Positions 41,245-45,405 of a stretch of 64,000 nt of DNA are shown here, one piece after another (the stretch's first letter is position 1; every line of letters starts with the position of its first letter). Location: NCBI GenBank assembly GCA_038851075.1, contig JAWCLG010000005.1, forward strand, positions 2,308-66,307, written 5' to 3'. The translations under genes were made by a program, and so were the position numbers. Origin of the DNA: Candidatus Hadarchaeales archaeon. GTDB taxonomy: Archaea; Hadarchaeota; Hadarchaeia; Hadarchaeales; Hadarchaeaceae. The notes beneath the pieces are model-generated. The model was not told the DNA's origin. It did not search any database and was given only the letters and a program-made list of their open reading frames with translations.

Positions 41245-42435
41245 GTGATGGCCGTGAGGGCGGACGTGGTCGTGGTGGGAGGAGGACCCGTGGGGTGCTA
41301 TTCCGGGCTTCTTCTGGCAAGAAGCGGCTTCAGCGTTGTGGTGATGGAGGAGCATCTGGAGGTAGGAAATCCGGCATGCTGTGCAGGAGTGGTCGGTGTG
41401 AGAGGCCTTAAGAAGATGGGAGTCAGTTACTCGCCCCATGTTCTTTCGAAGCTCAGGCGCGCGATCGTTCACTCTCCATCTGGCCACTCGGTCGAAATCG
41501 GAAGAGGAAGGGTTGAGGCAGTGGTGATCAACCGCGCGGGTTTCGACAGGACTATCTCTGAGGATGCTGAGGCGGCAGGGGCCAGGCTGATCACCGGAGC
41601 GAGATGTGTCGGTCTGAAGATCGGAAAAACTGTGAGGGCAGAGTTTCGCGGAAAATGTTCCGGGAGTGTGGAGGCAGATCTCGTCCTCGGTGCAGATGGC
41701 GCGGCGTCCAGGGTGGCCAGGATGGCCGAAATCTCGAAAAAGAGGAGCTACATTCTCTGCGCCCAGACAGAGTTGAAGGGGCAATGTGAGGAAGATGCGG
41801 CCGAGATATTTCTCGGGAGAAAATATGCTCGCGGTTTCTTTGGATGGATGGTGAATGCGGGCGGACGTTGCAGGATAGGTACGGGGACTCTGGAGGGCAG
41901 TCCGCTGACGAGTCTTCAGAATCTTGTCAGAATGAACCCTGCACTTAGAGGAAGGGTGCGCGGTAAGATAGTGCCATGCGCAAGGCCGATTCCTAACTTT
42001 TTCATTCGCAAACCTTTTGGAAGGAAGGTGATGCTAGTGGGCGATGCGGCCGGTCAGGTAAAGCCTCTCACGGGAGGCGGTATATGGATGGGGTTGAGAT
42101 GCGCCCACATTGCGGCGGGGGTTGCGGCAGAATACCTGAGAGATGGACGCACGGATCTTTCCGAGTATGGGAAAGCGGTCGATAAAATTTTTGGCCGAGA
42201 GATATATCTCGGTCAGATTGCCAGGCGAATCTTCAGGGGAATGTCAGATGATGATCTTGATAAGGCAGTCAGGTTGCTGGATGGAGGAATGAAGAAAATT
42301 GTGTGTGAAAATTTCGATTTTGACCATCACGGAAGGCTGATTTCGGCCCTGATGAAAAAAATTCCAGATGTTGTGGCTGAAGTTGGATTAAGAGGAGCTC
42401 TGATTGGAGCAAGCGCGTTCTTTAAAGGCAAATAA
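41245..42435 (+). CDS. Geranylgeranyl reductase family FAD-dependent oxidoreductase (second paralogue)
   Basis: DVVVVGGGPVG, GADGAAS and GDAAGQVKPLTGGGI motifs; ACCAGVV in place of QCGEA. Confidence 0.85.
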   Translation: MMAVRADVVVVGGGPVGCYSGLLLARSGFSVVVMEEHLEVGNPACCAGVVGVRGLKKMGVSYSPHVLSKLRRAIVHSPSGHSVEIGRGRVEAVVINRAGFDRTISEDAEAAGARLITGARCVGLKIGKTVRAEFRGKCSGSVEADLVLGADGAASRVARMAEISKKRSYILCAQTELKGQCEEDAAEIFLGRKYARGFFGWMVNAGGRCRIGTGTLEGSPLTSLQNLVRMNPALRGRVRGKIVPCARPIPNFFIRKPFGRKVMLVGDAAGQVKPLTGGGIWMGLRCAHIAAGVAAEYLRDGRTDLSEYGKAVDKIFGREIYLGQIARRIFRGMSDDDLDKAVRLLDGGMKKIVCENFDFDHHGRLISALMKKIPDVVAEVGLRGALIGASAFFKGK

Positions 42436-42439
42436 AAAA
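42434..42439 (-). terminator. Oligo-T (T6) terminator directly after the candidate ncRNA
   Basis: The plus-strand AAAAAA at 42434-42439 abuts the 3' strand of the terminal helix; oligo-dT is the usual archaeal terminator. Confidence 0.55.
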
Positions 42440-42670
42440 GGCGGGAACTTCGATCCCTTCCCTACTCGCCCGGCGAGCAGACGAATCTCGACCACCTCGC
42501 CCGCCCGCAGTTTTTTCAGGTCAGGATCTTTATCCCGCAGTCGATGTCTCCCTCCGTTCTTCCACGGAGGTTATCCGCGCTCTTCCCCGGTTTTTCGCCC
42601 GGGTTTTCACGCGGGTCCCCGTTGCCCGTAGGCTCCGGTTCGACCTCCTCTGCGGGCTTCCGTTCCCGCC
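42440..42670 (-). ncRNA. Candidate unclassified structured RNA (~231 nt)
   Basis: 9-bp terminal helix GGCGGGAAC/GTTCCCGCC, several perfect internal GC helices, a C(UACG)G tetraloop and purine-rich loops on the minus strand. BRE/TATA lies upstream and T6 downstream. The RNase P CR-I/CR-V and SRP helix-8 motifs are absent. Confidence 0.65.
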
Positions 42671-42697
42671 GGTAATCCATTTGGTCAGGATCCTTAT
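42519..42697. repeat. 15-bp direct repeat (14/15 identical): 42519-42533 and 42683-42697
   Basis: ggtcaggatctttat versus ggtcaggatccttat; one copy is inside the candidate RNA, the other between its TATA box and predicted start. Confidence 0.8.
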
Positions 42698-42710
42698 TTA
42701 TAGATTTTTT
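42697..42710 (-). promoter_or_regulatory. BRE + TATA box for the candidate ncRNA
   Basis: Minus strand AAAAAA-TCTATAAA. Standard spacing predicts a start near A42673 (TA initiator), 3 nt before the terminal helix. Confidence 0.55.
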
Positions 42711-42796
42711 AAAGGATTGAGATATCTCAAAAGTTGAGTTTCTCAGGGTCTGCGATATTGTTGGTCCCGGGTTTGTGATTTATTGGCACCGGTCTT

Positions 42797-42850
42797 TAGT
42801 TAATAATATAACAAAAGATTTATATACTCCTTTTGTTACTAATATAACAA
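42797..42850 (+). promoter_or_regulatory. TATA box (42819-42826) bracketed by two palindromic operator-like boxes
   Basis: TAGTTA-ATAATA-TAACAA (42797-42814) and TTGTTA-CTAATA-TAACAA (42833-42850) are 16/18 identical and 36 bp apart, with TTTATATA between them. Confidence 0.75.
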
Positions 42851-42859
42851 GTGATTACC

Positions 42860-43135
42860 ATGGCCAAGGTTCTGATAATATGGGATGTAAAGGCGAGGGG
42901 CACACCGGCAACGCTGTTCTACAGGGCACTCTGCGGCTATGATTACAAAACAAAGGGCGGAAGGAGACACTCGCCAGGAGTTCTTGATCAGCTTCCAGAT
43001 GAGGTTTGGAATTTCATCAACAGGAGCACGCTCCTTATCGAGGAGGAATATGCGAGGATGGTTGAAAGGATATTTAGGGAATTTGAGGAGTACCTTAACT
43101 GGTTCAGGTTCAGGGTGGAGGAGGTGAAAGAGTGA
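42860..43135 (+). CDS. Small orphan protein with Cas2/VapD-like pattern
   Basis: [10 protein letters not shown] (beta1 ending in Asp), helix [17 protein letters not shown] (like Cas2 R.Q.SV.) and a helix-strand C-terminus. Its TGA overlaps the cdc48 GTG. The fold assignment is by eye; the CDS itself is well supported. Confidence 0.6.
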
Positions 43136-45405
43136 CTCAGAAGGGAAAAGAACTAAAGCTGGTTGTCGCGGAGAACAGGCATCAGACATACGTAAACAGA
43201 GGATTCGCGCTGATCGATGACTCTCTGATGAAACAGATCGGGATAAAGCAGGGAGATTACATTCAGATCACAGGGACAAAGACCACCGGTGCCATTGCAG
43301 TCAGGGGGATGCCCGAGGACAAAGGGCTGGACATAATAAGGATTGATGGTCTGATAAGGCACAATGCCGGTACCTCGATAGGCGAGAAGGTCGAAGTCAA
43401 GAGGGCAGATGTTAAAGAGGCAAAATCCATAACCATAGCTCCGACCGAGCAGGGCATTAGATTCGTGGCGCCGGGAGAGGTAATAAAGAGGAACCTTCTC
43501 GGAAGGCCGCTCACCAAGGGGGACCTGATAACCCCAACTCCTCCTGAGGAGCCGATGCAGATGTCTGGGGATTTCTTCGAGGAGATATTCGGCGGGATAT
43601 TTGGTATGAGGGCGCTTCCCTTTGGGCTTGGAGAGATCAAGTTCGTGGTAACGGCAACGAGTCCTTCAGGGATAGTCCTAGTGACGGATATGACAGAGGT
43701 TCAGGTGATGCCCGAGGCCGTTGAGATAAAGGAGACAAAGGTCCCGGCTGTAACCTATGAAGACATCGGGGGTTTGAAAGATGAGCTGCAGCGGGTGCGG
43801 GAGATGATAGAGCTGCCTCTGAAGCATCCTGAGATATTCGACAGGCTCGGCATAGACCCTCCGAAGGGAGTTCTTCTTCATGGCCCGCCAGGCACCGGTA
43901 AAACTCTCATAGCGAAGGCGGTTGCGAATGAGTCGGGTGCAAACTTTTTCGCGATAAACGGCCCGGAGATAATGAGCAAATTCTACGGTGAGAGCGAGGC
44001 CCGGTTGAGGGAGATATTTGAACAGGCTGAGAAGAGCGCGCCGTCGATTCTATTCATAGACGAGATAGATGCGATTGCGCCCAAGCGTGAGGAGGTAACT
44101 GGGGAGGTGGAGCGCAGAGTGGTGGCAACCCTGAACACGCTTATGGATGGACTTAAGTCTCGTGGAAAGGTGATTGTCATAGGTGCCACCAACCGTCCGA
44201 ACGCCCTTGACCCAGCCCTCCGCAGGCCCGGGCGCTTTGATCGCGAGATAGAGATAGGCGTGCCTGACCGGGACGGGAGAAAGGAGATCCTGCAAATACA
44301 CACTAGGGGAATGCCGCTTTCCAAGGATGTCAATCTGGATCACTACGCCGATGTTACACACGGTTTTGTGGGCGCCGATCTAGAAGCTCTCTGCAAGGAG
44401 GCTGCCATGAGCGCGCTCAGACGTATACTTCCGGAGATAAATCTCGAGGAGAAGGTGATTCCGCCTGAGGTTCTGGAGAAGCTTCAGGTCACAAAGGATG
44501 ACTTTGAAAACGCGCTGAAGATAGTTGAGCCATCGGCGATGCGCGAGGTGTTGGTTGAGGTTCCTAACGTTAAATGGGAGGATATAGGAGGGCTTGAAAA
44601 AGCAAAGCAGGAACTTAAGGAAGCGGTTGAGTGGCCACTGAAATACCCTGATTCATTCAGGAAAGTTGGAATAGAGCCACCGAGAGGAATACTGCTATAC
44701 GGGCCTCCAGGAACCGGAAAGACCATGCTGGCCAAGGCTGTGGCGACCGAAAGCGAGGCTAACTTCATATCTATAAAGGGTCCCGAGCTTTTGTCGAAGT
44801 GGGTTGGGGAATCAGAGCGCGGAGTACGCGAGACGTTCCGAAAGGCGAAGATGGCTGCTCCTTGCATAATTTTCTTCGACGAGATAGATTCGCTCGTGCC
44901 GAGGCGCGGTTCAGGTTTCGGCGATTCTCACGTCACGGAGCGAGTGATAAGCCAGCTGCTTACGGAGATGGATGGACTGGAGAAGCTGGAGAACGTCGTG
45001 GTGATAGGTGCCACGAACAGACCTGACCTTGTTGATCCTGCCCTGCTGAGACCCGGAAGATTTGACAGGCTCGTTTATGTCGGGCCTCCGGATGAGAAGG
45101 CAAGGCTTGATATACTGAAGATACACACCAAGGGAATGCCACTCGCGAAGGATGTGGATCTGAAGCAGCTTGCAAAGGAAACGGAGGGATATTCCGGTTC
45201 AGATCTTGCCGCCCTCTGCAGAGAAGCCGCTATGCGCGTGCTGCGCAAGGATATAAAAGGAGGGGAAATCAAAATGGCCAACTTCAGGGAGGCAATGGGA
45301 GAGATTCGTCCGTCACTGACGCAGGACTTAGTTAAGGTCTATGAGACTTTCGCAGAGAGGAAGGAAAAACAGGTTCTAAAAAATTCTACCAGCATGCACT
45401 ACTAA
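43132..45405 (+). CDS. cdc48: CDC48/VAT family AAA+ ATPase
   Basis: N-domain ([13 protein letters not shown]) and two AAA modules (GPPGTGKT twice, [23 protein letters not shown] twice). Confidence 0.97.

Follow-up and report, generated by a model that had tools for sequence, protein, structure and literature searches.

INTRODUCTION

Few RNAs are both large and intricately folded around a conserved, unpaired core, and the examples that are understood (ribosomal RNAs, RNase P RNA, SRP RNA, group I and group II introns, and riboswitches) carry out basic biochemical tasks. Several described systems come close to the RNA reported here. The expanded 5S rRNA of Halococcus is 231 nt long. Y RNAs and the bacterial YrlA RNAs are small RNAs bound by Ro60, and the Y RNAs of vertebrates have been linked to DNA replication. 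RNase P RNA and SRP RNA in archaea belong to the 200–330 nt size class, and the OLE, ROOL, GOLLD and raiA RNAs were found by comparative genomics as lineage-restricted RNAs with complex folds and strong covariation.

We describe a minus-strand RNA gene in a 64,000-nt stretch of the genome of a Candidatus Hadarchaeales archaeon (contig JAWCLG010000005.1, positions 2,308 to 66,307; hereafter the window, whose own numbering is used throughout). It is highly probable, in our judgement, that the locus is a real gene of a new, uncatalogued RNA family, whose members are structured RNAs of 200–235 nt confined to Hadarchaeales.

As in 5S rRNA, a terminal helix formed by the two ends of the molecule closes a three-way junction, one arm bears a loop-E-like AGUA/GAA module, and there are several gene copies; the length is close to that of the Halococcus variant. 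Unlike 5S rRNA, the RNA has the AGUA and GAA strands in reverse order and a four-way junction on one arm; the 5S model RF00001 gives no match at E ≤ 10, and a normal 120-nt 5S rRNA is encoded elsewhere in the genome. That genuine gene and the strand order of loop E rule out an expanded 5S rRNA of the Halococcus type. The Y and YrlA RNAs resemble our family in being small, stable and non-coding, with a long terminal helix, a terminal U-run and several paralogues that combine a common stem with variable loops, and the replication link in vertebrates parallels the linkage to the DNA polymerase gene polB reported below. However, the present RNA is twice as long as a Y RNA, is much more branched and has no match to the Rfam Y_RNA model. 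With archaeal RNase P and SRP RNAs it shares the size class, high G+C, a terminal helix, purine-rich conserved junctions and a BRE/TATA promoter of its own, but it has neither the P4/CR-I–V signatures nor the SRP helix 8 signature, and it is multi-copy and lineage-restricted rather than universal. The manner of discovery, complex fold, strong covariation and restricted distribution recall OLE, ROOL, GOLLD and raiA, from which it differs in being archaeal and smaller, in occurring as multiple diverged paralogues, in its linkage to polB, where theirs is to phage or membrane genes, and in having no match in Rfam 15.

THE LOCUS AND ITS TRANSCRIPTION SIGNALS

The gene stands alone in an intergenic region that is bounded on one side by a gene for a GGR-like FAD oxidoreductase (41245–42435, plus strand) and on the other by a small ORF and the cdc48 operon (42851–45405, plus strand). 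The GGR-like ORF, the next gene downstream of the RNA, is thus on the opposite strand and convergent. The RNA segment is a G+C island (about 0.60, versus 0.35 just upstream). Its features are as follows.

42717–42730, minus strand: palindrome TTGAGATATCTCAA; the BRE follows about 6 nt downstream
42705–42710, minus strand: BRE AAAAAA, read from the sequence
42695–42704, minus strand: TATA box TCTATAAATA, read from the sequence
42440–42671, minus strand: type A RNA; it spans about 232–234 nt if counted from the predicted start through the last base of the terminal helix, and scores 242.4 bits (E = 1.2e-61) with the covariance model
42662–42670, minus strand: 5′ strand of terminal helix P1, GGCGGGAAC, pairing with 42440–42448
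42440–42448, minus strand: 3′ strand of P1, GUUCCCGCC, pairing with 42662–42670
42434–42439, minus strand: T6 run, an archaeal oligo-T terminator, directly 3′ of P1

The centre of the TATA box lies about 26 nt 5′ of the predicted start (42671–42673), which is the first base of the 9-bp helix P1. All the elements on which the original prediction was built, namely the BRE/TATA, the terminal helix, the T6 run and the hairpins, are present on the minus strand.

BLASTN found homologues in 31 of 41 related genomes. The homology begins at 42670/42671 and ends at 42430–42437, that is, at the ends of the terminal helix, and the flanks cannot be aligned. Among the homologues the promoter, the upstream palindrome and the T-run are conserved and the flanking DNA is not: the BRE/TATA stands at an equal distance from the first conserved base in nearly all of 38 homologues and in the copies sampled besides, and nearly all homologues have a T-run 3′ of P1. 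The conserved signals, the coincidence of the homology ends with the helix ends and the heavy covariation described below support the prediction of an independently transcribed, structured non-coding RNA gene.

In other genera and families, type A genes mostly have the related palindrome GGAGATATCTCC, GGAAATATTTCC or GGAATATCCC at the place corresponding to 42717–42730; within its own genome, the palindrome occurs in a promoter context only at the window locus. It is probably the site of a dimeric transcription factor, looks like one belonging to a factor dedicated to this RNA family, and suggests conditional rather than constitutive expression. In family f2 (L277) a dyad like GGAGATATCTCC is present twice, in tandem. 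Types B and C, defined below, have TATA boxes of their own, and their upstream palindromes are partly different.

The segment 42519–42533, in the linker J2/7 of the RNA, matches the promoter-proximal segment 42683–42697 at 14 of 15 positions. This similarity is at chance level (BLAST E = 43), and its promoter-proximal side is not conserved in homologues.

MEMBERS OF THE FAMILY

A covariance model of the RNA, R1, was applied to 65 genomes of the class Hadarchaeia. It found the RNA in 51 of the 65, in 1–6 copies per genome, the matches comprising about 70 full-length type A copies (204–256 bits) and about 50 copies of shorter subtypes (37–145 bits). The genome from which the window comes (about 1.0 Mb in 29 contigs) has a single copy, and in the sole additional genome of the phylum outside the class the RNA is absent. 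A 27-nt core pattern, searched in 185,579 species with one genome each, matched only genomes labelled Hadarchaeales, Hadesarchaea, Hadarchaeum or Hodarchaeaceae, or unnamed MAGs. A degenerate version of the core pattern matched 96 stretches of metagenomes, where the covariance model confirmed 80 of 80 listed loci, and had no match in 2.9 million viral contigs. In total the family numbers more than 190 natural sequences.

Three subtypes share a core consisting of P1, GGAAGCC, GAAC, GGAG, AAAAAC/GGGAAGG, GGAUAAG, GGAAAAAG, GAAAA, GAGUAG and GGUCGAA, and differ in the loop L5 and in P9/L9 (helix names as in the next section). The window copy is of type A, which is about 233 nt long and in which the L9 loop is invariant. 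Type B measures about 206 nt; one genus has it in tandem with a type A copy, about 85 nt on the upstream side. Type C copies are 200–214 nt long.

SECONDARY STRUCTURE

The sense strand folds with a minimum free energy of −121.6 kcal/mol, versus −89.0 ± 5.0 for shuffled sequences (z = −6.56; 0 of 200 shuffles as good); for the opposite strand z is −4.4. P1, P2 and P7 meet in a three-way junction, and the 5′ arm ends in the four-way junction of P3–P6. The parts inside P1 are listed below.

42534–42656, minus strand: 5′ domain, P2–P6; P2 and P3 close the four-way junction
42650–42656 with 42534–42540, minus strand: P2
42642–42644 (GUC) with 42546–42548 (GAC), minus strand: P3, paired in 95.6% of alignment cells
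42619–42638, minus strand: P4, with a GA/AA internal loop and a UACG tetraloop; hairpin GCC-UACG-GGC at 42624–42633
42575–42614, minus strand: P5, with a 5×5 purine internal loop and the loop GCGAAAAA
42551–42570, minus strand: P6, with the loop GGAAGA
42452–42528, minus strand: 3′ domain, P7–P8–P9
42524–42528 with 42452–42457, minus strand: P7
42518–42520 with 42460–42462, minus strand: P8, flanked by GAAAA (42513–42517) and AGUA (42463–42466)
About 42471–42510, minus strand: P9, a long hairpin whose loop (42486–42495) is the type-A-specific GUGGUCGAGA

RNAalifold predicted 62 pairs from 38 sequences, 41 of them with compensatory changes. Across 109 copies aligned to the model, standard pairs occupy 95.5% of cells, versus 35–44% in controls in which the pairing partners were slid by 1–3 columns; double (compensatory) changes occur in 58 of the 62 pairs, and the covariation score is 0.536, versus 0.06–0.11 in the controls. 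None of 500 shuffles reached any of these measures. The 109-copy alignment is fitted to the covariance model, and an unfitted MAFFT alignment of the 38 sequences gives the same picture; the nested helices were also recovered from mutual information. By helix, P1 is paired in 98.3% of cells with compensatory changes in 7 of 7 modelled pairs, helices 2–6 in 93.9–98.6% with such changes in 33 of 34 pairs, and helices 7–10 in 88.0–96.8%.

Conservation extends to unpaired positions. The terminal helix GGCGGGG/CCCCGCC (P1) is kept across all subtypes, as are the junction bases GAA, GGAG, AUAAG and GAGGC; across the family the P4 tetraloop is UACG or UAAG and the P6 loop is GGRRG. The segments GAAAA and AGUA that flank P8 are at least 90% conserved over the 109 copies, and the motif consensus suggests that P8 and its flanks may form a loop E/sarcin-ricin-like module. 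In the P5 loop an A·G to G·A exchange at RNA positions 64/91 is, on the evidence of the alignment, the mark of a non-canonical pair. Positions 44/224, in the P4 tetraloop and in J7/1, also covary, not in Watson–Crick fashion; this is possibly a tertiary contact between P4 loop and J7/1, and it may reflect phylogeny alone. Inspection by eye revealed neither a canonical K-turn nor any other module diagnostic of protein binding.

Some pairings had been placed differently in the original prediction, which also considered the RNA a possible conformational switch. Its helix GUCGA/UCGAC (42640–42644 with 42540–42544) is fully paired in 2 of the 38 homologues; what is conserved is GUC/GAC, shifted by four bases, which is P3. 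Of the alternative partners then proposed, 42503–42510 pairs fully with GCCCGCAG in 1 of the 38 homologues, and the pairing with 42465–42470 is complete in 2. With the alternative pairings fully formed in only 1–2 homologues, a conserved switch is not supported, nor is an alternative structure of the expression-platform kind.

A large and complex multi-junction fold with its conserved bases unpaired would also befit a ribozyme, or an RNA that assembles with itself into a ROOL- or GOLLD-like homo-oligomeric particle and does not need a protein partner. Kissing-loop dimers could form through the palindrome UCGA in the invariant type A loop, and the 44/224 covariation is possibly tertiary. However, no self-cleavage site or substrate is evident, the palindromic loop is absent from subtypes B and C, and the 44/224 signal is neither Watson–Crick nor necessarily more than phylogeny. 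We regard a ribozyme or self-assembling particle as improbable.

KNOWN RNA CLASSES AND CODING POTENTIAL

Searches with the 4227 models of Rfam 15 were made at the gathering score and at E ≤ 10. At the gathering score the whole window gave no match on the RNA; the sole match was a tRNA at 20083–20158 on the minus strand (68.3 bits). At E ≤ 10 the region 42350–42900 gave three chance matches, all outside the RNA. The original view that the RNA belongs to no recognisable archaeal class and is missing the RNase P and SRP helix 8 signatures thus holds, and the corresponding genuine genes were found elsewhere in the same genome: SRP RNA (RF01857) at G000:C10:12374–12702 with 127.6 bits, RNase P RNA (RF00373) at G000:C12:21352–21639 with 208 bits and 5S rRNA (RF00001) at G000:C3:50397–50517 with 94.9 bits. 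None of these three models matches the RNA described here, and the presence of the genuine genes means that it is not a divergent form of any of them.

Other classes were rejected as follows. For tRNA, tmRNA and tRNA-like elements, ARAGORN found no gene in 42300–42800 and no Rfam model of the tRNA clan matched; the GGGUC near the 3′ end pairs with an upstream GAUCC in the covarying helix P7, not in a T-stem. Membership among the Y RNAs fails because a gene for the TROVE/Ro60 protein (PF05731) is absent from all 65 Hadarchaeia genomes, in a search whose Deinococcus and Bacteroides controls were positive. C/D-box and H/ACA guide RNAs were dismissed on finding no UGAUGA in the RNA, no conservation of CUGA and no match to a snoRNA family inside it. 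As for antisense targets, a short-word BLAST search of the window's genome with the RNA as query gave only chance-level matches, and exact matches to the L9 loop in that genome are likewise at chance level. A full-text search of the literature found no description of this RNA.

A 54-codon ORF (42516–42680) overlaps the gene, and its frame is open in 34 of 62 type A copies, as is to be expected because purine-rich and GC-rich sequence has few stop codons. Its ATG (42678–42680), however, precedes the predicted RNA start and falls outside the conserved block. A length incompatible with the frame occurs in 30 of the 62 copies, and in several the frame is closed as early as codon 3–4. What the homologues conserve is base pairing (58 of 62 pairs with compensatory changes) rather than the ORF, and the stem substitutions are compensatory. 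A protein from this ORF can be considered refuted for practical purposes, and so can a highly diverged RNA of the SRP, RNase P, 5S or tRNA-like kind: the motif-level likenesses on which the latter reading could draw (GGAAG, AGUA/GAA and the terminal helix) are outweighed by the genuine SRP, RNase P and 5S genes and by the negative ARAGORN result.

GENOMIC CONTEXT

Copies of the RNA recur at conserved syntenic sites. One lies between a divergent gene for a DRG/Obg-like GTPase and a convergent GGR gene, and the window locus is a site of this DRG/GGR type with the cdc48 operon in the place of DRG. Others are the IscU/SufS neighbourhood and, for type C, the vicinity of glnA, moeA or AOR genes. A functional module with the Cdc48 operon was rejected on finding the arrangement not conserved, relatives having the DRG GTPase gene there. 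Among the conserved neighbours there is no gene for an RNA-binding protein.

Twin dyads TTGTTA-N6-TAACAA (42797–42850) lie over the promoter of the small ORF and cdc48 operon. In one genus a dyad TTGTTAC-N7-GTAACA stands directly upstream of the type C TATA box (L090, L132, L135, L136, L138 and L139); it resembles the cdc48 dyads but is spaced differently, and comparable dyads are found at G000:C2:44198 and C13:21726. On these motifs, the cdc48 operon and the type C RNA genes may be co-regulated. The small ORF (42851–43135, plus strand) would encode 94 amino acids, has no Pfam match at E ≤ 0.001, and overlaps the cdc48 start with its stop codon.

The repeated occurrence of the RNA raises the question of mobility. 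If the RNA came from a mobile element or a virus, as a relic or a copy still active (for instance a MITE or the guide RNA of a transposon nuclease), this might account for the GGCGGGG/CCCCGCC terminal inverted repeat, found in all subtypes and even in the unrelated-looking type D elements described below, and for the several copies per genome. The window's own genome has but one copy, however, and where there are more they are diverged paralogues at sites that are syntenic across genera. Their internal helices evolve by compensatory change, which indicates selection on the RNA; there are no copies in the 2.9 million viral contigs and no transposase, TnpB/IscB or reverse transcriptase gene among the conserved neighbours. 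This origin is largely refuted, and we consider it highly improbable.

In 26 genomes, from three families and nine genera, polB has a type A copy upstream of it and on its own strand, at a distance of 26–295 nt in 23 of them and of about 1 kb in the other 3. Families f2 and f5 have one copy per genome; there the polB-linked copy is the sole copy, 26–45 nt from the polB start. The gap of about 30–40 nt in f2 contains the T-run and a conserved Shine–Dalgarno-like GGAGTGAT before the start codon. This leaves no room for a canonical promoter, so that co-transcription by read-through is the simplest reading; in two families the polB-linked RNA is probably co-transcribed with polB. Family f1 has a motif CAACTTTTAT between RNA and polB that looks like a separate polB promoter.

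The copy just upstream of polB is the ancestral one, and the linkage is frequent and not obligatory. PolB is encoded in 64 of the 65 genomes, including those of family f4, in which the RNA is missing, so that PolB does not depend on the RNA. The adjacency is missing or replaced in several genera, among them that of the window, in whose genome polB has no RNA upstream. It is from the RNA-less genomes and from this polB that we conclude that the linkage is not obligatory.

Where polB has no type A copy upstream, it is often preceded by a different, very stable structured RNA of about 205 nt, which we call type D. An example is:

L299, 561–766, plus strand: type D element with its own TATA box; fold z = −9.6

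Type D is also present in L301, L291, L290 and L292, upstream of polB in genera g10 and g2. With the family it has in common only the terminal helix GGCGGGG/CCCCGCC (22–27 bits with R1), and type D elements have no match in Rfam. Comparison by eye shows the type D copies of different genomes to be homologous to one another, with many compensatory changes between them; BLAST cannot link them. Among the f4 genomes, in L288 and L289 (genera g17 and g19) polB directly follows a gene whose product ends like a replication factor C small subunit; before polB the remaining ones have the AT-rich promoter GAAAGATTTTAACTT but no RNA.

The position next to polB invites a cis-acting explanation, namely that the RNA is a polB leader, either a riboswitch or a protein-dependent attenuator, that controls read-through at the T-run, the stand-alone copies being orphaned duplicates or trans-acting derivatives. 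The proximity of the sole copy to polB in f2 and f5, the f2 gap with its Shine–Dalgarno-like sequence and no space for a separate promoter, the placing of P1 directly before the T-run, and the concentration of the most conserved bases in junctions, as in ligand pockets, all agree with such a leader. A position 5′ of a gene is, however, occupied only by the polB-linked copies of other genomes. The window copy was rejected as a riboswitch or leader, the GGR-like gene downstream being convergent on the opposite strand, and most other copies (those at the DRG/GGR and IscU loci and most of type C) have no downstream gene on the same strand either. In addition, polB of f1 seems to have its own promoter, the window's own genome retains the RNA with none upstream of polB, and the stand-alone copies are conserved equally to the polB-linked ones (230–256 bits). 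We therefore judge a cis-acting leader unlikely.

DISCUSSION

Taken overall, the locus is best explained as a functional gene for a stable, trans-acting RNA that serves as a protein scaffold and is possibly tied to replication or repair, an explanation in which we place slightly less than even confidence. The RNA would be transcribed from its BRE/TATA promoter with the palindromic factor site upstream, beginning at the first base of P1 and ending at the T-run behind P1, so that both ends would be sealed in this helix. The purine-rich invariant junctions and internal loops would form a fixed three-dimensional core that binds at least one protein, and the subtype-specific apical loops L5 and L9 would confer partner specificity. 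The RNA would thus be the scaffold of a lineage-specific ribonucleoprotein.

The window copy itself points to action in trans. It has no downstream gene on its strand, and polB of its genome has no RNA upstream, so that any action must be in trans; it has no gene to regulate in cis and is nevertheless as well conserved as any other copy. A protein scaffold best fits the ends sealed in P1, the invariant purine-rich core, the paralogues with variable loops and the presence of several copies in a 1-Mb genome. The specific proposal of a trans-acting scaffold is nonetheless a tentative one, to which we would give somewhat less than an even chance; protein binding and the roles of the loops are inferred.

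A connection with replication or repair is favoured by the ancestral copy immediately upstream of polB, probably co-transcribed with it in two families. Co-transcription with polB could have been the original state, from which duplication would have produced trans-acting paralogues with specificities based on their loops. In its strict form, this would make the family an RNA dedicated to the family-B DNA polymerase as its partner or regulator, in replication or repair; we hold that to be unlikely, and a direct functional link between RNA and PolB has in our estimation a similarly slim chance of being right.

The family is new to the catalogues and to the literature searched. With genomes of only about 1 Mb, the uncultivated Hadarchaeota nevertheless maintain 1–6 promoter-driven copies of this RNA together with what appears to be a dedicated upstream factor site. 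It offers RNA biology a new fold that is represented by more than 190 sequences, is supported by covariation almost throughout and can now be taken to structure determination. From its conserved pairing with polB comes a concrete and testable hypothesis in a part of archaeal biology in which we know of no RNA player. Should the RNA prove to be a partner of PolB, archaea would have their first RNA of this sort, with a role that parallels that of Y RNAs in the replication of eukaryotes.
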